Positions 2,447 through 54,387 of a DNA stretch of 64,000 bases are shown piece after piece. The DNA comes from an uncultured Acidobacteriota bacterium. Its GTDB lineage: Bacteria; Acidobacteriota; Thermoanaerobaculia; Multivoradales; UBA5704. The translations under genes were made by a program, and so were the position numbers. Position 1 is the stretch's first letter; each line of letters starts with the position of its first letter. Location: the NCBI GenBank assembly GCA_963756595.1, contig CAVWOZ010000015.1:132975-196974 (forward strand), written 5' to 3'. Under the pieces are notes generated by a model, which was given only the letters and a program-made list of their open reading frames with translations, made no database searches and was not told where the DNA came from.

Positions 2447-2641
2447 GAGGCAAAGCCCCGAAGGGGCGATAGCATAAGCCCCAGGTGCTGGTTCCAGTCT
2501 GAATCCGATAGCCCCGAAGGGGCGACAGCAGACCCTCTCGAATCGGTCTGCTGCCGCCCCTTCGGGGCTGGAATTGGGTTGGGGCGGATTCCCTGGGGCT
2601 TACGCCCCAGGCTTTATGCTGTCGCCCCTTCGGGGCTTTGC
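2447..2641. repeat. Nested inverted repeat (~190 nt) built from four copies of an AGCCCCGAAGGGGCGAYAGCA module (two forward, two reverse)
   Basis: Forward copies lie near 2453-2474 and 2509-2530. Reverse-complement copies lie near 2549-2570 and 2616-2640. The centre is GCAGACC..GGTCTGC at ~2528-2551. Each module contains the self-complementary GCCCC-GAA-GGGGC. Confidence 0.85.
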
Positions 2642-24722: not shown

Positions 24723-26033
24723 TCAGGCCCGCTCGCTCCGTAGCGCCGGATCCTGCCGGGCGAGGTGGAGGTAGCGCTGCAGATCGGCGAGGCGCCCATC
24801 CCTGAACTCCAGGCTCGCCGCCTGCCGGAACGCGATCAGCGCGGCGATCGCCTCACACTCGAGGCCCCGCGACTGGAAGATCGCGAGGACCTCCTCGGCC
24901 AAACGCCGCACCTCGGGAATCCGTCCCTGGCCGGCGCAAAGGCTGGCGAGGTCGAGGGAGACCGCGGCTGCGCTGAATCCGACTTCGAGCTCGATGAACC
25001 CTGAACGAGCTTCCCGCAGTGCCCTTTCGGCTTCCTGCGGAAAGCTCAGCGCTTCGTAGATCTTCCCTTCGAGCCAGCGCAAACGGAAAAGAAGCAACGG
25101 ACTGCCGTAGCGTTGGAACTCATCGCGGGAAGCCTTGAGCAGAAAGCGGGCCTCTCGCGGCCGACCACTCTCCTGTAAGTAGGCCATCAGGCTGTGCCGG
25201 GTCGCGAGGTCGACGTACCTCTCGCAGGTGGGATCGAGCAGACCGAGTCCCTTGCGCAGCCAGGACATCGCCCGGTTCAAATCACCCGAGGTTCCATACA
25301 CACGCCCCTTCTGGGCGAAGGCCCGGCCGAGGAGATGGGTGTCTCCGTACCGCTTGTAGATGGCGATCGCTTCGTCGAGCGTGCGATGGGCCTCGGCCGG
25401 ACAGCGCCGGTCGCGATGGAACGCGGCTTTCAGCTCGAGCACGAACGCCTTCTCCAGAGGGTCTCCCGATCCCCGGGCAGCGAAGCCTTCGGCGGCTTCG
25501 AAGGATCTCTGGGCCCCTCGGAGATCGGACCGGCGACGCAGCGTTTCGCCGCGGCAAGCCCACGCACGAGCCCGCAGATCGTTGATCAGGGCACCACCAT
25601 AGAGGTCGGCGAGGAGCTTTTCCGCGACGGTCACGGCACAGTCGGCCAAGGCCTCGGCCCGGCCGAAATCCACATAGGAGGCTCTCAGGCTCTCCTCGAT
25701 CAGCCATTCACCGACCGCCCAGGTATGGAAGGCTGAGTCGGACTCGACCAAGACGTTCGGGGCTTGCGACTTCGCCTGCAGGCGGGCGATGAGGAGGGGG
25801 AGTTGCTGGCGCTCGTGAGCGAACCGATGGGCATACTCCCCCACCCGCGGCAGGAAATCTCTGAAAGCCCGGCTGTAATCCTTTGCCATGAACCTCCAGG
25901 AACCCAGGAGGAGGTCACCTCCCCGCCGGCTTTCGTCGCCGGGGGTGAGCGGTTCACCGTGTCGCTTGGTGAAGCCGTCGATCCTGGCGGGGACGTCCGG
26001 CTGAGAATTGGGATCGGGAGGGTTGACGGTCAT
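24723..26033 (-). CDS. Helical-repeat (TPR-like) sensor-domain protein, paralog S1, with no recognisable output domain
   Basis: Aligns by eye along ~350 aa with 26197..27585, 29260..30609 and 52269..53864. Examples: 'DLRARAWACRGETLRRRSDLRGAQRSF', 'LFRLRWLEGKIY', 'AAAVSLDLASL', 'GRIPEVRRLAEEVLAIFQSRGLECEAIAALIAFRQAA'. It lacks both the CPxC motif and an HTH. Confidence 0.75.
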   Translation of the reverse strand: MTVNPPDPNSQPDVPARIDGFTKRHGEPLTPGDESRRGGDLLLGSWRFMAKDYSRAFRDFLPRVGEYAHRFAHERQQLPLLIARLQAKSQAPNVLVESDSAFHTWAVGEWLIEESLRASYVDFGRAEALADCAVTVAEKLLADLYGGALINDLRARAWACRGETLRRRSDLRGAQRSFEAAEGFAARGSGDPLEKAFVLELKAAFHRDRRCPAEAHRTLDEAIAIYKRYGDTHLLGRAFAQKGRVYGTSGDLNRAMSWLRKGLGLLDPTCERYVDLATRHSLMAYLQESGRPREARFLLKASRDEFQRYGSPLLLFRLRWLEGKIYEALSFPQEAERALREARSGFIELEVGFSAAAVSLDLASLCAGQGRIPEVRRLAEEVLAIFQSRGLECEAIAALIAFRQAASLEFRDGRLADLQRYLHLARQDPALRSERA

Positions 26034-26196: not shown

Positions 26197-27585
26197 TCAG
26201 GAAGGCTGGGGAAAACGAAGGTCCGGATTGTTACGCACACGCTTGAGGAAGCTCGAGACCTCGCGGACGAGATCGAGCCCGGCCCGATCGATGCGCGCGG
26301 CACTCGAGAAGACGAGCAGGGCCGCCAGCGATTCACCGTGTGTATGGTGAGTCTGAAAGATCGCCAGGGTCTCTTCCGAGAGACGCCGCACTTCCGCGGT
26401 GCGCCCCTGAAGGACATAGACACCTGCGAGATCGAGCGAAGCGAGCGCGGCGTCGTAGGCCAGACCGAGCTCGACGAAGGCCTCACGGACTTCGCGGAAA
26501 GCGGCCTCCGCCTGATCGGTCCGCTGCAAGCCGAAGGCGACCAGCCCCTCCAGCCAGCGCAGCTTCAGCAGGTTCATCCGGTCGCCGGCTTTGAGATAGA
26601 GCGGCCGGCTGTGATACAGGAGGGCGAAGGCTTCCCGCACGCTCCCCCGTTCGTAGAGCGCGTGAATCAGGTTGTGACGGGCGGCGAGGAATACCCGGGG
26701 GTCGGCTTGGGGGTCGATCAGGTCGAGCGCCCGCCGGAGCAGCTTCATCTCTCCCTCGACATCGCCGGCCCAGCTGCAAACCAGCGACTTCTGCAGCAGG
26801 GTGCGGCCGAGCAGATGCCATTGGCCGAGCTTCTTGTAGATCGCGGCGACCCGGTCGAAGAGCTGGAGGGACTCTCCGAAGCGGTGCTGGGACCTCCGGC
26901 AGGACGCCAGGAGGGAGAGAACTTTGGCCTTCTCCGCGAGCGGAACCTGCGTTTCGGCCAGCACGGACTCGGTCACCGAGAACGCAGCCTCGGACGCGGC
27001 GAAGTCGGAGTTGATCCGGTACGCGTTGCCGAGTTGGGCCCAGGCGCGGGCGCGCAGGCCGGCGAGATCCTCTGCCCTACCCCATTCGCCGGCTCCCAGC
27101 CGGTCGGCCACCAGGACCGCCAGCTTCGCGAGCTCGACAGCGCGGCGCGGCTCCTCGAAGCCCGCCTCGTAGCTCGTCTCGGTAAGCCGCTCGCAGAGCA
27201 TCCGGTTCTGAAACCGCTGGCTGTTACTCAACAGGAGGTGACGACGCTCGGCCGGGCAATCCATGAGCTCCTGATAGAGGCTCTGGCCCTGGTTACGCTG
27301 CTGGGTGAGGCGGGCCTCGGTCGTCACCGCCTGTCCGAAGACGCGGTCGAGAACCTCGTCATAACCATCGCGGGCATCATGGGCGTCCTCCTCCGTGAGA
27401 TCCACCGTATCGAGCGCCTGCGGATCCTCGAAGACGTCGGCAGGCTCCCAGAGCCCCACCGTGACCTCCTGGCATTCCGGGCATCCCTCCAGCAGATGCC
27501 GAGCCACCTCGCGCATCTCCATCGTCGAGAGCCGTCCGAGAACGAACTCCTCGAGCGCCTCCGCGGTAGGATGCAGCGCGCTCAG
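26197..27585 (-). CDS. Soluble zf-HC2-like anti-sigma module fused to a TPR-like sensor domain (paralog S2, partner of sigma C)
   Basis: N-terminus 'HPTAEALEEFVLGRLSTMEMREVARHLLEGCPECQ' aligns with 'HPQRSLLSRFGRGRLRRHQNREIVRHLLAECPDCR' of 29260..30609. No TM-like hydrophobic stretch. The C-terminal sensor is homologous to S1/S3/S4. The start is uncertain. CTG 27585 overlaps the sigma stop (CTGA) and fits the alignment. TTG 27648 and ATG 27522 are alternatives. Confidence 0.75.
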   Translation of the reverse strand: MSALHPTAEALEEFVLGRLSTMEMREVARHLLEGCPECQEVTVGLWEPADVFEDPQALDTVDLTEEDAHDARDGYDEVLDRVFGQAVTTEARLTQQRNQGQSLYQELMDCPAERRHLLLSNSQRFQNRMLCERLTETSYEAGFEEPRRAVELAKLAVLVADRLGAGEWGRAEDLAGLRARAWAQLGNAYRINSDFAASEAAFSVTESVLAETQVPLAEKAKVLSLLASCRRSQHRFGESLQLFDRVAAIYKKLGQWHLLGRTLLQKSLVCSWAGDVEGEMKLLRRALDLIDPQADPRVFLAARHNLIHALYERGSVREAFALLYHSRPLYLKAGDRMNLLKLRWLEGLVAFGLQRTDQAEAAFREVREAFVELGLAYDAALASLDLAGVYVLQGRTAEVRRLSEETLAIFQTHHTHGESLAALLVFSSAARIDRAGLDLVREVSSFLKRVRNNPDLRFPQPS

Positions 27586-28115
27586 ACCCCCACCTTCTTC
27601 TTGCCGACTCCCGACGTGACCAGTTGCCGCGTCAGCGTCGCGAGGCAACGCGTCGTGATCTTGCTGATGCTCGCCGGGCTGTATCCCAGCCGCTCGGCGA
27701 GCTCGGCGGGAGCGTACCCCTGACGGTAGCGCAGGGACAGCAGCGAGCGGCAGCGCTCCGGCAAGCGCTCCAGCGCGCTGTCGAGGTCGCGGCGCATGTC
27801 CGCCCCTTCCTGTGCCGGATGGAGCGGCTCCGCCATGGCATCGAGCACCGCGGCGTCGACCGCATCGTAGATCTTGCGTCGCTGCTCTCGCCAGTACAGC
27901 AGGCACTTGTTACGGACGGTACCGAGCAGCCAGGCCTCCGGATCGCGGATGCCATCGCGATGGTAGACCAAGGCGAGCAAGGCCTGCTGGAGGATGTCTT
28001 CGGTGTCCTGCGGAGGGATGCGGTAATGTGCGAACAGGGCTTTCAAACGAGCCCGAGCCCCTTGGAGACAACCCTCAAGCGGCGACTCGACTTGGGGTTG
28101 GTCCAATGCACTCAT
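27582..28115 (-). CDS. ECF-type sigma-70 family factor (sigma C)
   Basis: Region 2 'RIPPQDTEDILQQALLALV..WLLGTVRNKCLLYWR'. Region 4 'RCRSLLSLRYRQGYAPAELAERLGYSPASISKITTRCLATLTRQL'. Confidence 0.88.
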   Translation of the reverse strand: MSALDQPQVESPLEGCLQGARARLKALFAHYRIPPQDTEDILQQALLALVYHRDGIRDPEAWLLGTVRNKCLLYWREQRRKIYDAVDAAVLDAMAEPLHPAQEGADMRRDLDSALERLPERCRSLLSLRYRQGYAPAELAERLGYSPASISKITTRCLATLTRQLVTSGVGKKKVGV

Positions 28116-28192
28116 CTTCCAAAAAGCATGTCAGACTAATCTACGATAAGGTACCACCAACGGCTGAATGATGTCCAGTCAGCCGCCGTGCT

Positions 28193-28217
28193 CCGCCGGG
28201 GCGGATCGCCCCGGCGG
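28193..28217 (-). terminator. GC-rich hairpin (11-bp stem, 3-nt loop) 20 nt after the small-protein stop; no U-tract
   Basis: CCGCCGGGGCG-gat-CGCCCCGGCGG. Confidence 0.4.
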
Positions 28218-28236: not shown

Positions 28237-28437
28237 CTAGCGATTTCCATCCGGGTCGATCTGCGGTCCCGCCAGGGGCAGCAGATGCGTCACGAGATCC
28301 CAGAGCCAGGAGAGAGTCCCTTGATCGTTCTGCACCGCCACCGTGGCGACCGCATGGGCCGGATGGACCGATGTCGCTCCGAGGACGAAGCTCAGGAGCA
28401 GGGCTGGGAAGGCGCGACGGAGATGCGGGCTGGTCAT
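28237..28437 (-). CDS. Small secreted protein/propeptide (66 aa), homolog of 54103..54387
   Basis: The ATG at 28437 is preceded by AAGGAGA with ~6-nt spacing. Signal peptide 'MTSPHLRRAFPALLLSFVLGATSVHPAHA|VAT'. The mature part 'VATVAVQNDQGTLSWLWDLVTHLLPLAGPQIDPDGNR' shares TLSxW and IDPxGN with the second copy. Confidence 0.65.
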   Translation of the reverse strand: MTSPHLRRAFPALLLSFVLGATSVHPAHAVATVAVQNDQGTLSWLWDLVTHLLPLAGPQIDPDGNR

Positions 28438-28613
28438 GGTGTTCTCCTTTTTTAAATTCGCCATCTTGGCTTAATAGCCATAGGCAATTAAAGAAACCCC
28501 ACAGATAAGTTCCCGCAGGACCGTCGGGAAGGACAGTCGCAGAGAAAAAATCTTCGCGGTCCGCTTCACGGCGGCCCGTCGAGACCAGCTAGGTCAGAGG
28601 AAGAGAAGGGAGA

Positions 28614-29159
28614 TCAGGATCCGGCCTGGAAGCCGGCGCCCAGGAGTTGCTCGGTCAGGGAGGCCAGACAACGGCGTGTCACTTTACGAATACTGGACTT
28701 GCAGTACCCCATTCGCTCCGCCGTCTCGGCGGTGCTGCAGCCGAATCCGTAGCGCAGCCTGAGCAGAGACCTGCAGCGATCCGGCAACTCGGCGAGGAGA
28801 GACTCGAGGTCGTAGCGCAGGTCCGCCCGCTCCTGGGGGGGCGCCTCCACATCGGCCAGCAGCTCGAGGAGCGTGCTGTCGACGAGGTCCCAGAGCTTGG
28901 CGCGGTGCTTCCGCCAGTAGATGATGCAGCGGTTGGCCAGCGTCGCAACCAGCCAAGGGTCGGGGTTGCGGATGCTCCCCGCCTTCGACACCATGATCAG
29001 GAACGTCTCCTGCAACAGATCTTCAGCGTCCTGGGCTGGAATGCGATAGCGGCCGAGCACCCTGCGGAGCTTGGGTTCTGCCCGCTCGAGGATCTCCTCC
29101 AGAGACGCCTCCACCAGCTCGGATGGGACCATCGGGTCCATGGCCTTATCTATCGACAT
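28614..29159 (-). CDS. ECF-type sigma-70 family factor (sigma B), with no adjacent anti-sigma gene
   Basis: 'RIPAQDAEDLLQETFLIMV..WLVATLANRCIIYWR' and 'RCRSLLRLRYGFGCSTAETAERMGYCKSSIRKVTRRCLASLTEQL'. Confidence 0.88.
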   Translation of the reverse strand: MSIDKAMDPMVPSELVEASLEEILERAEPKLRRVLGRYRIPAQDAEDLLQETFLIMVSKAGSIRNPDPWLVATLANRCIIYWRKHRAKLWDLVDSTLLELLADVEAPPQERADLRYDLESLLAELPDRCRSLLRLRYGFGCSTAETAERMGYCKSSIRKVTRRCLASLTEQLLGAGFQAGS

Positions 29160-29259
29160 TTAAGAACTAAAGATTATCATTCCCTGCTGGGGTTGTCCAG
29201 GTACTCGAGCGCGCATAGCGCAAGCCCTCTCTGCGCCATCCTGGAAGCGAAGAGCGGCT

Positions 29260-30609
29260 TCAGGAAGCGCGGGATTCCTTGAGGTAGCCGCTCACCTCCC
29301 GGATCAATCCCAGGGTCACACGCTCCATCTCCGCCGCCTTCTGGAAGACGAACAGGGCGGCCACGGCTTCCCGATGGATGTCCCGCGACTTGAAGATTTG
29401 CAGCATCTCTTCGGCCAGCCGCCGCATCTCGGAGGTCCGCCCGTCGCGGGCGTAAATGGTCGCCAGGTCGAGCGACAGCAGCGCGGCGTCGTAGCCCAAC
29501 TCGCGGTCGATCAGCTCCCTGTGCACGCTGCGCAGGAAGTCTTCGGCCTCTTTGAAGTGCCCCAGCGCGCTGGCGATCTTCCCCTCCAGCCAACGCAGGC
29601 GCAGGAGGTTCATCTGGTCGCCGATCTGATGGTAGAGAGGGCGCGCGCTGTTGAGCAGCTGGAGGGCTTCCACGTAGCGGCCGCTCTCGACCAGGTAGAG
29701 GGTCAGATTGTGCTGCGCCGCCACCACGAGCCGCGGATCGGACGTCGGCTCCACTCGCTGCAACCCCTCGGTGAGGTTCCGGATCGCCGCTTCCGGATCG
29801 CCGGCCAGGCCGAGCAGGAAGCCGCGGGTGATCAGGGCCCGGCCGCACAGGTGCGAGTCGTCGCAGCGGCGGCCGATGGCCCCCACCCGGTCGAGGATGC
29901 GAAAGGCCTCCCGGAAGCGCTGCTGGTTGCCATAGAGGGAGGCCTTGATCAGCAGGATCTGCGCTTTCTCGATCGGGTCGCCGGTTCCCGCCTTGAGCAG
30001 CCGCTCGGCCCGCGCGAAGCTGCGCTCCGCCGCCCGGAAATCCGAACGGATCCGCTGCGCGTTGCCCAGGCATGCCCAGGCGCGCGCTCCCAGGTCGTCG
30101 ACCCGGGCCTTGCCGTAGGTCTCGGCGTCGAGGTGCTCCACGACCGCGACGCCGAGCGTCGCGAGGGCGAGGGCGCGCGCGGGATCTTGAAAACCCCATT
30201 CGCTGGCCGAGTCGAGGAGCAGCTCGCAGAATCCCCAGGTGTTGAACCGGGAAGCCTCCTCGCTGATCAGGGCCTGCTGGCGTTCGAACGGCTGAGCGAG
30301 GAGCTCCCGCAACAGCTCGGCGGCCACCGCCCGCTCGGCCTGGAGAGCGATCGACCGCCGGTCGACCTCGGCTCCCGCGCGGGCGAAGGCCGGCCCATAG
30401 TGGAGACGAGGCACCCGGATCCTGACGTCGCTCTGGTGGCTCTCGGCGCCCGGCTCGGTTCCCATGCCCGACGGGAGCAGCCGGGACGTGAGTTGGCGGC
30501 AGTCCGGACACTCCGCGAGGAGGTGCCGGACGATCTCCCGGTTCTGATGGCGACGGAGCCGGCCGCGTCCGAAACGGGAGAGCAGGGATCGCTGGGGGTG
30601 TCTAACCAT
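29260..30609 (-). CDS. Soluble zf-HC2-like anti-sigma module fused to a TPR-like sensor domain (paralog S3, partner of sigma A)
   Basis: 'MVRHPQRSLLSRFGRGRLRRHQNREIVRHLLAECPDCRQL', then the sensor domain ('DLGARAWACLGNAQRIRSDFRAAERSF', 'LLRLRWLEGKI', 'DAALLSLDLATIY', 'GRTSEMRRLAEEMLQIFKSRDIHREAVAALFVFQKAA'). The ATG at 30609 overlaps the sigma A stop by 8 nt (ATGGTTAG). Confidence 0.82.
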   Translation of the reverse strand: MVRHPQRSLLSRFGRGRLRRHQNREIVRHLLAECPDCRQLTSRLLPSGMGTEPGAESHQSDVRIRVPRLHYGPAFARAGAEVDRRSIALQAERAVAAELLRELLAQPFERQQALISEEASRFNTWGFCELLLDSASEWGFQDPARALALATLGVAVVEHLDAETYGKARVDDLGARAWACLGNAQRIRSDFRAAERSFARAERLLKAGTGDPIEKAQILLIKASLYGNQQRFREAFRILDRVGAIGRRCDDSHLCGRALITRGFLLGLAGDPEAAIRNLTEGLQRVEPTSDPRLVVAAQHNLTLYLVESGRYVEALQLLNSARPLYHQIGDQMNLLRLRWLEGKIASALGHFKEAEDFLRSVHRELIDRELGYDAALLSLDLATIYARDGRTSEMRRLAEEMLQIFKSRDIHREAVAALFVFQKAAEMERVTLGLIREVSGYLKESRAS

Positions 30610-31153
30610 CCTGAGGCTCGGCCGCAGGCTCCCGATCGAACCCGACCGCCAGGAGCTGCCGGGTAAGGGCCGCCAGACAGCGGTTGGTCACTTTACGGAT
30701 GCTGGAGGTCCGGTAGCCCATCTGCTCCGCCACCTCGGTCGGACCGTAGCCGAGCCCGTAGCGCAGCTTGAGCAGCGACCGGCAGCGGGTCGACAGCCGG
30801 GAGAGCACCCGGTTGAGGTCGTAGGTCAGCTCCGTCTTCTCCTGGTCCGGGGCCTGCGGTACCGCCAGCAGGTCGAGGATCGCCGTATCGACGGCTTCGC
30901 AGAGACTGCCGCGCCGCTTGCGCCAGTACATGATGCACTTCTTCTTGACCGTGCCGATCAGCCAGCTCTCGGGGCTGCGGATCTTGTCCCACTTGTACAA
31001 CAGGGTGAGCTGCGCATCCTGAAGGATGTCTTCAGCGTCTTCCGGCGGGATCTCAAAGTTCCTCAAGACTCGCTCCAGCCGGGGCCGGGAGTTCTTCAGG
31101 AGAATGTTGAGCGATTCCCGCAGTTCAGGATGGTCAAGAGTTGCCATAGCCAC
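30602..31153 (-). CDS. ECF-type sigma-70 family factor (sigma A)
   Basis: 'EIPPEDAEDILQDAQLTLL..WLIGTVKKKCIMYWR' and 'RCRSLLKLRYGLGYGPTEVAEQMGYRTSSIRKVTNRCLAALTRQL'. Confidence 0.88.
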   Translation of the reverse strand: MAMATLDHPELRESLNILLKNSRPRLERVLRNFEIPPEDAEDILQDAQLTLLYKWDKIRSPESWLIGTVKKKCIMYWRKRRGSLCEAVDTAILDLLAVPQAPDQEKTELTYDLNRVLSRLSTRCRSLLKLRYGLGYGPTEVAEQMGYRTSSIRKVTNRCLAALTRQLLAVGFDREPAAEPQDG

Positions 31154-31265
31154 TATTTATGCCGTCGACAGTCGGTAGGCTAACACCCCGTTCGCCACCT
31201 GTCCATAGACGAAGGGAAGTTCCGGCCGGGCCGGCTGGTGACCGGCGCGCCGCGACGGGATCTGC

Positions 31266-52268: not shown

Positions 52269-53864
52269 TCAATCGCCCGCGCCATCGAACCGGAGGTCCG
52301 GTTCAAACCGTGCCCTGCGGAGGTAGAGGAGCACTTCGCGGGCGAACGCCTCCGTCACCCGTTCCCGCTCCGCCGCCTGGCGGAAGAGGGTCAGGGCGGC
52401 GAGCGCTTCGCGATGAACATCCTGAGCCTGAAAGATGGGTGCCATGTGGCGGGCGAGAATCTTCACCTGGTCCGACCGCCCCAGACCGGCATAACAGACG
52501 GCAAGTTCGAGCGAGACGAGCGCCGTGTCGTAACCCAGGTTGCGAGAGGCGAATTCTCCGCGCACCCGAGAGAGCGTGGCAATTCCAGCGGAAACATCGC
52601 CCTGGCCGGCGGCTATCCGTCCCTCAGTCCACAGGACGCGAAAGAGATTCAGCTCCCCTCCGTACTTCAGGCACAAGCTACGGGCCTCCGGCAAGAGCGC
52701 CGCCGCCTCCTCCATTTGCCCTAGCCTGCTCAGGCCGTCAGCCAAGTTGTGTCGAATCCATAAGCGGACTCTTCCTTCCTCGTCGGAACGAATACTCTCG
52801 TTCAAGCCCCGGAGGATCCCCACTGCCTGCCGGAGATCCCCTAGGTCGCCGAAGAGCTTGGCTCTGTTGACGAGCACCTCAACCCGGAATCTTGAGCTGC
52901 GGGCGACTGCGAGGGCCTGATCGAGAAGCTCGGCGGCTTCGTCGGAGCGCCGCTGTGCCCGGCGCAGGGACGCCTTGAGCGAATAGAAGAGTCCTTCCTC
53001 GAGAAGCTCGTTCTGGGCCTGCCTACCGTCCTTCCACAGTTCCTCGGCCGAGACGAAGGCTCGTTCCGCGGCGGGGAGGTCGCCTTGAACCCGGATGGCG
53101 TTCCCTATGTGCGCCCATGCGAAGCCGCGAAGCCTCGCGCGCCAGGCATCGTCACCCTCTGCACGATCGGCGGCAGAGAGCGCCAGCTCCGCGACGGCAC
53201 GGCCCTGGATCGGATCATCGGCGCACAAACGATGCGTCTCAAGGCAAAGCGTCTCGCAGACCGCCCATTGCAACTCGGCGGGGGCGTCGCTAAGCCTTGC
53301 CGCCTGCTCGTCGCTCGGCATTCCGCGGAGGCGCTCCCAGAGTTCGCTCGCGGCAGCCCGATCACACTCGGAAGGGGAAGACGCAGCGGCGATCTTCTGA
53401 GCCCCACCTCCCGCCCTAAGAATCCGGGCCAGGTGGTCGAGCCTGGCAGCGGTCCTGCTCATCTCCGCCGCCTGGATGCTGAGCTTCTCCGCCTCGCCTG
53501 CAAGGAAGGAAAGCTCGCCGAGCTCGGCGTCTGCGTCCTCCGAGGTTCTGCAGTCGGTGAGGAGCCGTTCGATGAACCACGCTCCAAGGTCGATCGCCGA
53601 CCAGCGGAATCGCATGGCAGCGAGGAGCTTCTCCAGAGTCGAGGCATCGGGCGTGGTGAGCGCCCGCTCATACTCCGAGATGGAAGCGCGCTTGACCCGA
53701 GCGAGCCGCGCGAGGTCCGATTGCGTCAAGCCGAGAGCCGTCCGGAGGGCCGCAAGCACCCTTCCGAGGTGGAGCGCTCCAAGCCCTTCAACCTTCTTCC
53801 GTGCCCGGGCTCGGCGAGCCGCCCGCGCGCCCTCTTCACCCGTCGTGCGGAGATTCCTCATCAT
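52269..53864 (-). CDS. XRE-family HTH fused to TPR-like sensor domain (paralog S4)
   Basis: HTH 'LRTALGLTQSDLARLARVKRASISEYERALTTPDASTLEKLLAAM'. C-terminal sensor homologous to S1-S3: 'RLRGFAWAHIGNAIRVQGDLPAAERAF', 'LFRVLWTEGRI', 'DTALVSLELAVCY', 'GRSDQVKILARHMAPIFQAQDVHREALAALTLFRQAAERERVT', 'YLRRARFEPDLRF'. Confidence 0.85.
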   Translation of the reverse strand: MMRNLRTTGEEGARAARRARARKKVEGLGALHLGRVLAALRTALGLTQSDLARLARVKRASISEYERALTTPDASTLEKLLAAMRFRWSAIDLGAWFIERLLTDCRTSEDADAELGELSFLAGEAEKLSIQAAEMSRTAARLDHLARILRAGGGAQKIAAASSPSECDRAAASELWERLRGMPSDEQAARLSDAPAELQWAVCETLCLETHRLCADDPIQGRAVAELALSAADRAEGDDAWRARLRGFAWAHIGNAIRVQGDLPAAERAFVSAEELWKDGRQAQNELLEEGLFYSLKASLRRAQRRSDEAAELLDQALAVARSSRFRVEVLVNRAKLFGDLGDLRQAVGILRGLNESIRSDEEGRVRLWIRHNLADGLSRLGQMEEAAALLPEARSLCLKYGGELNLFRVLWTEGRIAAGQGDVSAGIATLSRVRGEFASRNLGYDTALVSLELAVCYAGLGRSDQVKILARHMAPIFQAQDVHREALAALTLFRQAAERERVTEAFAREVLLYLRRARFEPDLRFDGAGD

Positions 53865-54102
53865 CCGGTCTCCCTCAAAGCAGTGTCATGAATAGAGGAC
53901 TTTTGCCCTTAAAGAGATGGTGTGTGCTGGGGCTAGAGGCGAGCCGTTCCGGCAGATCGGGTCTCGCTTGACCGGTCCGAGAGTCATCTTGTACCGTCCA
54001 AGGGACTGTTTGTCCCTCCTTGCGGCACCTCTCTAGGAAGAGAGCGGAACCCGGGTGCCGCTTTGGCGGCCGGACTTGTTCCGCCCAGAAAGGACGAGTG
54101 TC

Positions 54103-54387
54103 ATGTCCCGTACGCGCCGACTGCATGTCGCACCTCTCCTCCTCGCTTCCTTCTTGATCGCCTGGCCTGCTCCGGGTGCTGCCGCGGAACGTCGGTCGGA
54201 AGGCCAGCCTGTTCACTTCTCACTGCTTCGGATTTTCTTGCCGGCGTGGAGGGCTACCCTCTCGTTTTGGGAGAAAGAAGGAAGCTCCATTGACCCCTAT
54301 GGCAATCCCAAGCCGAACGCTATAGCGCCTGTGCCGGGGAGCAACGGAATTCCTCCGACGCAAAGCAATCCCGGATCGACGAGTTAG
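54103..54387 (+). CDS. Small secreted protein/propeptide (94 aa), homolog of 28237..28437
   Basis: ATG at 54103 after AAAGGACGAG. Signal peptide 'MSRTRRLHVAPLLLASFLIAWPAPGAAA|ERR'. The mature part contains 'ATLSFWEKEGSSIDPYGNPKPN' (compare 'GTLSWLWD...GPQIDPDGNR') and a Pro-rich tail. It is divergent from the XRE-sensor gene. Confidence 0.6.
   Translation: MSRTRRLHVAPLLLASFLIAWPAPGAAAERRSEGQPVHFSLLRIFLPAWRATLSFWEKEGSSIDPYGNPKPNAIAPVPGSNGIPPTQSNPGSTS

Follow-up and report, generated by a model that had tools for sequence, protein, structure and literature searches.

Predicted pre-pro-peptides with a repeated IDPxG core, encoded beside TPR regulators in Acidobacteriota, as a possible peptide-signalling family

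In a 64,000-nucleotide stretch of DNA from an uncultured Acidobacteriota bacterium (the window, analysed over its full length; 68% G+C), two small genes were found that belong to one family and lie in loci encoding regulators with tetratricopeptide repeat (TPR) domains. Peptide 1 is the 66-amino-acid (aa) product of positions 28237-28437 on the minus strand, and peptide 2 is the 94-aa product of 54103-54387 on the plus strand. The interpretation we tentatively favor, with a little less than even confidence, is that both genes encode pre-pro-peptides of a lineage-specific signalling family, and that this family represents RRNPP-like signalling in a diderm bacterium that also gates sigma factors of the extracytoplasmic function (ECF) type. 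In their arrangement the genes recall the peptide quorum-sensing cassettes that have until now been described in Gram-positive bacteria.

A first-pass annotation, made from the letters of this DNA alone, had described two homologous small secreted proteins, each with a gene of a single sensor family as its neighbor. Both open reading frames (ORFs) are present, and their translations are identical to those quoted there. Peptide 1 consists of a twin-arginine signal peptide ending in AHA, a helix that contains Trp (LSWLWDLVTHLL) and, at the C-terminus, the core AGPQIDPDGNR, and peptide 2 of a signal peptide ending in AAA, a helix with LSFWEKEG, the core GSSIDPYGN and a Pro/Gly-rich tail of 26 aa. 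This tail (PKPNAIAPVPGSNGIPPTQSNPGSTS; 54310-54384, plus strand) extends 26 residues past the core, is rich in Pro, Gly and Ser, and is kept in the nine homologues of peptide 2; most family members lack it. The signal peptides, judged by eye, combine basic residues in the n-region with a hydrophobic core (Kyte-Doolittle 1.4-1.6) and an AxA site that is conserved, features suggesting that both precursors are cleaved. Plausible ribosome-binding sites, also part of the earlier description, precede both genes: AAGGAG at 28444-28449 (minus strand), 6 nt before the ATG of peptide 1 at 28437, and a weaker AAAGGA in the case of peptide 2. AAGGAG or AAGGAGA stands at an equal distance 5' of most family genes. 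When the window was scanned in six frames for [IVL]DPxG[ND], only two of the four matches, those in peptides 1 and 2, lay near the C-terminus of a small ORF with a signal peptide. The possibility that the small ORFs might not be conserved can be set aside, as 13 close homologues of peptide 1 and nine of peptide 2 were found, at 71-93% identity. In the 13 homologues of peptide 1 the C-terminal 27 aa are nearly invariant and the stretch after the signal peptide is variable, and twelve orthologue pairs of peptide genes have dN/dS values of 0.28-0.72. By these sequence measures, both peptides are products of real, conserved genes.

The relatives from which the family was defined come from 75 loci around sensor homologues in species-representative genomes, all of them Thermoanaerobaculia, Holophagales or unclassified Acidobacteriota. 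Most of these loci contain a small ORF with an M-x4-L-R-R signal peptide, an AxA site, a variable basic linker, a Trp helix and a C-terminal G-x-x-I-D-P-x-G-N; variant C-termini are RIDGNG, RIDDNG and INPDG...DDGH. A family hidden Markov model (HMM) retrieved 60 of 14,227 small ORFs at E<1e-4, with a clean gap to noise. Direct comparison of the two window peptides gives weak similarity (BLASTP E=0.14; hhalign probability 9%), and pairwise homology as the sole proof of kinship was dropped as too weak in favor of family HMMs controlled by leave-out. Run against the same 14,227 small ORFs, HMMs from which the tested clade was absent gave E=2.5e-11 for peptide 1 and E=5.6e-11 for peptide 2, and with the first 30 residues cut from every sequence the values were still 3.7e-8 and 1.9e-6, the alignment running over helix and core. 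The homology asserted in the first-pass annotation is thus upheld at the level of the family. A profile search of 5.8 billion proteins found 174 members, none with a name or a Pfam domain, and an exhaustive HMMER search of 1.84 billion representatives gave 926 clusters at 50% identity with E<=1e-3, some of the weaker of which may be compositional, and 71 at E<=1e-10. For the most part 66-150 aa long, the members come from Thermoanaerobaculia or other Acidobacteriota wherever their source is named. Neither peptide has a Pfam or NCBIfam match at E<=1, the listed homologues have no precomputed Pfam match, and the Rfam scan found no family in either peptide locus; on these searches the family is a previously unnamed and unannotated one. 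Three giant repeat proteins from the representative search (P0145, P0195 and P0196) were set aside as showing low-complexity resemblance only. P0145 (2912 aa) has more than 26 repeats of GMRIDGSGGMMTEPGLSSQT that match the core part of the profile, and is probably an unrelated low-complexity protein.

Across 131 family sequences, R7, G57, D61 and G64 are invariant, and R8, the Ala at the AxA site and W46 are nearly so. The core is a unit of ~10 residues, K-x-G-x-x-I-D-(P)-x-G, that occurs in one to five copies per precursor, such as KASVRIDPDGN twice, KRGASIDGNG three times, or four xIDPxG units in the precursor of one locus (L073). Cores within a precursor are more alike than cores of different precursors (72% vs 53% identity overall; 63% vs 40% at variable positions), as would be expected if each copy were released as an active product. 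Relative to D-P-x-G, the variable positions of the core are -2, +2 and +4. The stretch of identity delimits a unit of ~10-11 residues whose first residue is Lys or Asp, and candidate mature peptides that may be read from the sequences are AGPQIDPDGNR and EKEGSSIDPYGN. Very often the core is also the C-terminus of the protein (RIDGNG, RIDDNG, DPDGNR). In a large clade, whose sole named member is from Thermoanaerobaculia, the cores are flanked by cysteines, (K/D)(E/T)G-C-[NHR]-I-D-P-[NSD]-G-R-C (134 cores); if the pair closes a nine-residue disulfide loop, this would have to happen beyond the cytoplasm, in an oxidising compartment. Two loci (L010, 5344-5427; L025, 5784-5867) encode 27-aa versions that keep the helix and a VRIDPDG core and lack a signal peptide (MSQLLLWLATAVSSLDVGVRIDPDGIW).

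Both genes occupy the positions given for them in the first-pass annotation. Peptide 1 belongs to a minus-strand cluster at 24.7-31.2 kb with the gene order sigma A, sensor S3, sigma B, the 66-aa ORF, sigma C, S2 and S1. Sigma A (30602-31153), sigma B (28614-29159; directly 5' of peptide 1) and sigma C (27582-28115; directly 3') are all of ECF type, with regions 2 and 4 only (TIGR02937 61-72 bits, cutoff 42.9, with 72 bits for B and 67 for C; Sigma70_r2 and r4 present). S3 (29260-30609; 449 aa), the first 8 nt of which are shared with the end of sigma A, and S2 (26197-27585; ~460 aa, start uncertain) each join an anti-sigma-like N-terminus with an HxxxCxxC motif to a TPR domain. For S2, no in-frame ATG, GTG or TTG includes the conserved N-terminal 'HP' without overlapping all of sigma C; it probably starts at a CTG that runs into the stop codon of sigma C (CTGA, 27582-27585, minus strand), which would mean translational coupling to sigma C with a rare start codon. 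Sigma B has no coupled anti-sigma gene, and S1 (24723-26033, minus strand) is a TPR domain alone that lacks both the zinc motif and a coupled sigma gene. Peptide 2 is divergent from a gene at 52269-53864 (minus strand), 238 nt away, that encodes a 531-aa protein in which an XRE-type HTH_3 domain (Pfam, 1.3e-11) is fused to the sensor TPR domain (TPR_12). These four sensor paralogues have in common a TPR domain of ~340 aa, at 33-45% identity. Invariant positions of the TPR domains lie in RARAWA-LGNA, RHNL and RLRWLEG.

The sensors are predicted to be soluble, and their fold resembles that of peptide binders. No membrane helix is predicted in them (maximum 19-residue Kyte-Doolittle score 1.61), so that they are probably cytoplasmic, and no input domain other than the TPR was recognisable in those examined. 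The H-x3-C-x2-C motif (H29, C34, C37) is invariant in 11 sensors, including S2, S3 and paralogues that stand alone; Pfam zf-HC2 was found in three of the 11, and a profile of the N-terminal region matches the anti-sigma factors ChrR (1.2e-4), DdvA (4.7e-4), RslA and RsiW. AlphaFold2 predicts confident TPR superhelices of eight repeats (pLDDT ~85-95 over the repeats; 80-95 for the TPR domain of S3). In Foldseek comparisons the TPR models lie nearest to the groove-type peptide binders LGN/Pins, and the XRE-TPR model superposes on peptide-bound Rap with TM scores of 0.64 (4gyo), 0.62 (4i9c) and 0.65 (8rsu). The modelled fold points to a type of binder, one that takes an extended peptide in its groove, and not to RRNPP membership. 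A sensor profile run against the sequences of solved structures likewise gave generic TPR matches (RapJ at E=0.01) and did not single out RRNPP receptors.

The coupling between peptide genes and sensor genes recurs well beyond the window, and the expectation that short ORFs with a signal peptide and an IDPxGN-type core would be found systematically near sensor genes in relatives was borne out from both directions. Starting from the sensors, a family ORF is present in 55 of the 75 loci, a lower bound because the ORF filter apparently missed an annotated member (P0099) of a locus scored as negative (L023) and because further such loci carry weak or degenerate copies. None of the 57 family ORFs is farther than 1.5 kb from a sensor gene, and the remaining 46% of the sequence is devoid of them. 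Starting from the peptides, a metagenome scan for distant Cys-type members, with a profile built from four Cys-type sequences, found a sensor-family gene next to the peptide gene in 47 of 51 loci; in these 47 cassettes the two genes are convergent and 10-60 nt apart, at times in tandem arrays. Four of the five sensors examined from Cys-type cassettes have the HTH_3+TPR architecture of the XRE protein in the window, the fifth having TPR matches only. Four more metagenome contigs found through the peptide (4/4) contain a sigma-sigma-peptide-sigma-TPR-TPR locus between metK and lptFG. Since this metK...lptFG locus is orthologous across the class, its cases are not independent, and the independent support lies in the four arrangements observed: the peptide gene between sigma genes; directly 5' of an anti-sigma-like TPR gene that stands alone, no sigma gene being found for 6 kb around; and beside an XRE-TPR gene, in one arrangement divergent from it and in another convergent with it. 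The peptide-linked sensors carry one of two output domains, either HTH_3 (XRE) or a zinc anti-sigma (ZAS)-like domain paired with ECF sigma factors.

Apart from the peptide and the sensor, comparison of the cassette neighborhoods revealed no conserved gene. What lies beside them varies from locus to locus and includes kinase, GGDEF/EAL and two-component genes and, in a single case, a subtilase. This subtilisin-like (S8) protease gene (L073, 9473-11263, plus strand) is 2 kb 3' of the solo peptide-sensor pair with the four-unit precursor, and it is probably coincidental, being absent as a conserved neighbor from the other loci. Five loci (L013, L019, L020, L034 and L037, among them that of a Thermoanaerobaculum sp. 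metagenome-assembled genome) have sigma B abutting sigma C with no room for a peptide gene, and here the peptide has apparently been lost and the sigma/sensor cluster retained. Four metagenome contigs (L102, L106, L110 and L114) hold two or more tandem cassettes of a peptide gene and an HTH-TPR gene with differing cores, CRIDPDG/CRVDPDG versus CHIDPNG/CNVDPNG, a pattern reminiscent of pherotype diversification. In two others (L096, 4055-4996, minus strand; L118, 3940-4758, minus strand) a second HTH_3 protein of 273-314 aa with a partial TPR is encoded across from the Cys-type peptide gene, so that some cassettes have two XRE-type regulators.

The DNA upstream of the peptide genes suggests how they may be controlled. 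Those of the conserved locus are preceded by a two-box motif, TGTC-N15-[GC][CA]GG-N-AAC, with fixed spacing and a variable spacer; in the window this promoter-like element (TGTC-N15-GCGGGAAC; 28509-28535, minus strand) occurs once and is specific to the peptide gene. It was found 50 times in 905 kb of loci, as against 2.2 times in shuffled sequence. Forty of the 50 are directly 5' of family ORFs, and most of the others are where a short or degenerate peptide gene sits; the 27-aa version in L010 also still has the motif upstream. A box containing AAC is typical of the -35 elements of ECF promoters, and the two-box motif is a candidate ECF-type promoter. An alternative view of it as an RNA structure or terminator (28522-28495 was flagged as terminator-like) was dropped, given that the spacer is not conserved and that RNAalifold detected no consensus pairing in 32 aligned upstream sequences. 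A second conserved block, GCCTATGGCTATT (28473-28485, minus strand), lies ~35 nt before the start codon and is kept in many peptide genes of the metK-lptFG locus. The sigma genes have conserved motifs of a different kind, resembling sigma-70 promoters: TGGACA-N-TGGTA 5' of sigma C (28152-28177, minus strand) and TGGACA-N-TGnTA 5' of sigma B (29175-29199) and sigma A (31181-31205; both minus strand). The motif is kept upstream of sigA and sigC in all 16 loci listed and upstream of sigB in most of them, which suggests that the sigma genes are transcribed individually and constitutively and are not autoregulated by ECF sigma factors. The simplest reading of these motifs is that the peptide gene is the local target of constitutively expressed sigma factors, a reading that suits both autoinduction and the regulated production of a secreted effector.

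At the second locus, the region between the XRE-TPR gene and peptide 2 (53865-54102) contains the inverted repeat CTCTCT-AGGA-AGAGAG (54029-54044), also present in an orthologous locus (L070). Outer arms GCGGCACC...GGTGCCGC (54022-54029 and 54054-54061) enclose it, and the nested repeats form a possible operator. The GC-rich hairpins that the first-pass annotation had placed after both genes were found in one case only. Past the stop codon of peptide 1, a 10-bp stem (CCGCCGGGGC/GCCCCGGCGG; 28193-28217, minus strand; -39.7 kcal/mol) folds better than shuffled sequences (z=-2.84), lacks a T-run and was not flagged as an intrinsic terminator by the terminator scan, whereas 3' of peptide 2 folding is no better than in shuffles (z=+1.62) and the scan found no terminator. 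Elsewhere in the window, an Acido-Lenti-1 small RNA at 2592-2637 (plus strand) is matched over its full length (54.8 bits, gathering score 37) and is the sole Rfam match of the 64,000 nucleotides.

Peptide quorum sensing with cytoplasmic TPR receptors is described as a trait of Gram-positive Firmicutes, and a computational signature for such RRNPP systems comprises a small propeptide (10-100 aa) exported through Sec, a TPR receptor of ~250-500 aa and direct adjacency of the two genes (PMC10075063). At 66 and 94 aa, the two precursors fall within the propeptide range. S3, S2 and the XRE-TPR protein (449, ~460 and 531 aa, with Pfam TPR_12 above threshold) answer to the receptor description. Adjacency is seen for peptide 2, 238 nt from its regulator, and for the 47 of 51 metagenome cassettes, peptide 1 being one sigma gene away. 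Overall, peptide 2 and the XRE-TPR gene come close to the full five-point signature, with export predicted by eye and a receptor that is slightly long; the invariant Arg-Arg could mean export by the twin-arginine (Tat) rather than the Sec route. The likeness to Rap-Phr, NprR-NprX, PlcR-PapR, AimR-AimP and Rgg-SHP thus includes the gene for a 66-94-aa propeptide, predicted to be exported, beside that for an intracellular TPR receptor of ~450-530 aa; the HTH_3+TPR receptor of the second locus and of metagenome cassettes (four of the five sensors examined), as in PlcR, NprR and AimR; an active part that would be a short C-terminal stretch; and tandem paralogous cassettes. Unlike these systems, the present one occurs in Thermoanaerobaculia, which are diderm and not Firmicutes, its receptors have no clear sequence homology to RRNPP receptors, and its peptides are an unrelated family with a D-P-x-G turn core that is often present in 2-5 copies and sometimes may be Cys-bridged. 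The anti-sigma output module is likewise not described in the RRNPP and ECF literature searched. Our literature search, the coverage of which was incomplete, turned up no earlier description of an RRNPP system in Acidobacteria or other diderms and none of a ZAS-TPR anti-sigma factor paired with a peptide gene.

Other known systems share parts of this design. Like the ZAS anti-sigma factors ChrR, RsrA, RslA and DdvA, S2 and S3 have an invariant H-x3-C-x2-C in their N-terminal ~50 residues, lack a predicted membrane helix and are encoded by genes that appear translationally coupled to that of an ECF sigma factor, which they would putatively inhibit. They differ in that the sensor module is a predicted TPR superhelix of ~340 aa and not a cupin or a redox-only switch, and in that many paralogues are solo genes, accompanied by a peptide gene but not by a sigma gene. 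ECF signalling is also modulated through a TPR domain, with a protein or peptide as its presumed partner, in two described groups: ECF42, in which the sigma factor has a C-terminal TPR extension, and ECF267, in which a FecR-like anti-sigma factor contains the TPR (PMC7826278, PMC8999054). In those groups the sigma factor or a FecR-type protein bears the TPR, whereas here it is on a ZAS-type anti-sigma factor, and a cognate secreted peptide gene is not described for those groups. In the layout of the precursor, the present family recalls eukaryotic pheromones. Multi-copy precursors such as that of the yeast alpha-factor have a signal peptide and a pro-region followed by near-identical units of ~10 residues, each after a basic residue. 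The precursors described here similarly have a signal peptide and pro-region and then several ~10-residue copies that are homogenised within the precursor, the differences being that the system is bacterial and that its proposed receptor is cytoplasmic and not at the surface.

If our interpretation is correct, the precursor would be exported by means of its N-terminal signal peptide, with the invariant Arg-Arg and an AxA cleavage site, and would then be trimmed outside the cytoplasm to one or more beta-turn units of ~10 residues, (K)-x-G-x-x-I-D-(P)-x-G-(N). Back in the cytoplasm, the unit would bind the TPR superhelix of the regulator encoded beside its own gene. At the second locus this regulator, the XRE-type DNA-binding protein with the architecture of an RRNPP receptor, may thereby be altered in its DNA binding, and in the 24.7-31.2 kb cluster, where a zinc anti-sigma domain precedes the TPR in one protein, binding may cause an ECF sigma factor to be released or retained. 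Recognition of the peptide gene's own alternative-sigma-like promoter would then complete a circuit of positive feedback like that of quorum sensing. We prefer a ligand to a purely regulated product because the TPR is the only candidate input module and appears to be of the peptide-groove type, because the peptide-TPR pair persists while output domain, orientation and neighborhood change, because what is constrained and amplified in the peptide is a short unit, and because cassettes duplicate in tandem with diverging cores. The fully developed form of this model, a pheromone system of a diderm phylum in which multi-copy IDPxG peptides re-enter the cell and bind a TPR receptor of XRE or soluble anti-sigma form, we regard as possible and hold more loosely.

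Several observations weigh against the model. Much of the adjacency comes from the one orthologous metK...lptFG locus, so that independent events are far fewer than loci, and a regulator would in any case be just as likely to lie next to the gene it controls, making ligand and target inseparable on this evidence. Peptide 1 is a near neighbor only, with a sigma gene between it and each sensor gene. The match to the Rap fold is generic, as LGN and designed TPRs score equal to or above Rap with the predicted models. The 27-aa variants without a signal peptide do not fit a secreted signal. Acidobacteriota are diderm, no import route was identified, and no Opp-type transporter is conserved beside the cassettes; moreover, disulfide-closed cores would be reduced after import and look built for extracellular action or stability.

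Some of these points are what would be expected if the peptides were instead secreted effectors, for example antimicrobial or bacteriocin-like products, metal- or surface-binding peptides or signals for another, extracellular receptor, with the adjacent TPR regulators only controlling how much of them is made, on some other cue from inside the cell. The first-pass annotation had itself named regulated cargo as the alternative to a signalling role. Although we think this somewhat unlikely, the peptide gene, with a conserved two-box motif of its own next to sigma genes that have sigma-70-like motifs, does look like a local ECF target, and the linkage is then explicable as that of a regulator and its target. 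Cys-bridged loops in multi-core precursors are typical of stable extracellular peptides, the conserved amphipathic Trp helix could be membrane-active, and an importer, which was not found beside the cassettes, would not be called for. This explanation nevertheless leaves the TPR, the only putative input module and one that resembles peptide binders, without a ligand, and the immunity, export and modification genes usual for bacteriocins do not accompany the cassette. The persistence of the peptide-TPR pair across output domains and gene orders is, in RRNPP systems, a reflection of ligand-receptor pairing. The two functions are also compatible, given that RRNPP receptors control their own propeptide genes as well. 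A related proposal, that the peptides are leader and core of an enzymatically modified (RiPP) product for which the TPR proteins serve as scaffolds or regulators of the modifying enzymes, could draw on the multi-core layout with its conserved helix ahead of the cores and on a weak NCBIfam match, well short of the cutoff (E=0.0019), between S1 and a cyclophane-RiPP TPR protein. We consider it very improbable, and rejected such a cluster when no modifying enzyme proved common to the loci compared: radical-SAM, cyclase, protease and transporter genes are not conserved beside the cassettes, the precursors carry classical export signals that are normally absent from RiPP precursors, and the TPR proteins carry DNA-binding or anti-sigma domains.

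Alternatively, the sensors may never meet a processed peptide. The cytoplasmic TPR could bind the precursor before its export, through the C-terminal IDPxG or the twin-Arg signal peptide, so that the sigma or HTH output reports on precursor export and the system monitors secretion or envelope stress, with a logic like that of FlgM export or of the sensing of outer membrane protein C-termini by DegS. TPR domains classically clamp free C-termini, as in Hop-EEVD and PEX5-PTS1, and the frequency with which the core ends the protein would suit such a clamp. The sensors lack a predicted membrane segment and the precursor starts its life in the cytoplasm; ECF systems typically sense envelope stress; the (near-)invariant Arg-Arg of the 131 sequences is unusual for Sec and expected of Tat signals, for which cytoplasmic chaperones are common; and the signal-less 27-aa variants could still bind. 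We nonetheless judge this unlikely by a good distance, since internal repeated and Cys-flanked cores make sense only as processed, oxidised extracellular products, units homogenised within a precursor point to released peptides, and Tat or Sec components are not linked to the cassettes.

If the family does signal as we propose, peptide quorum sensing of the cytoplasmic-TPR type would extend to a major, largely uncultured soil phylum, and the Acidobacteriota cassette, if truly analogous, would be either independently evolved or a very distant relative of those of Firmicutes. A self-encoded peptide would be a new type of input for ECF sigma regulation. Should the peptides act as true pheromones, RRNPP-like quorum sensing would be seen for the first time outside Firmicutes. 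It would also be the first case of a genetically encoded peptide gating an ECF sigma/anti-sigma switch, in which the liberated sigma factor would drive the peptide gene and so produce autoinduction. If the peptides are instead regulated effectors, they would still form a large unannotated class of multi-core products, partly Cys-flanked and possibly disulfide-cyclised. Because the parts are small and self-contained, a gene each for peptide and receptor together with a promoter motif that is easily recognised, they lend themselves to testing in a heterologous host and may provide orthogonal signalling modules.

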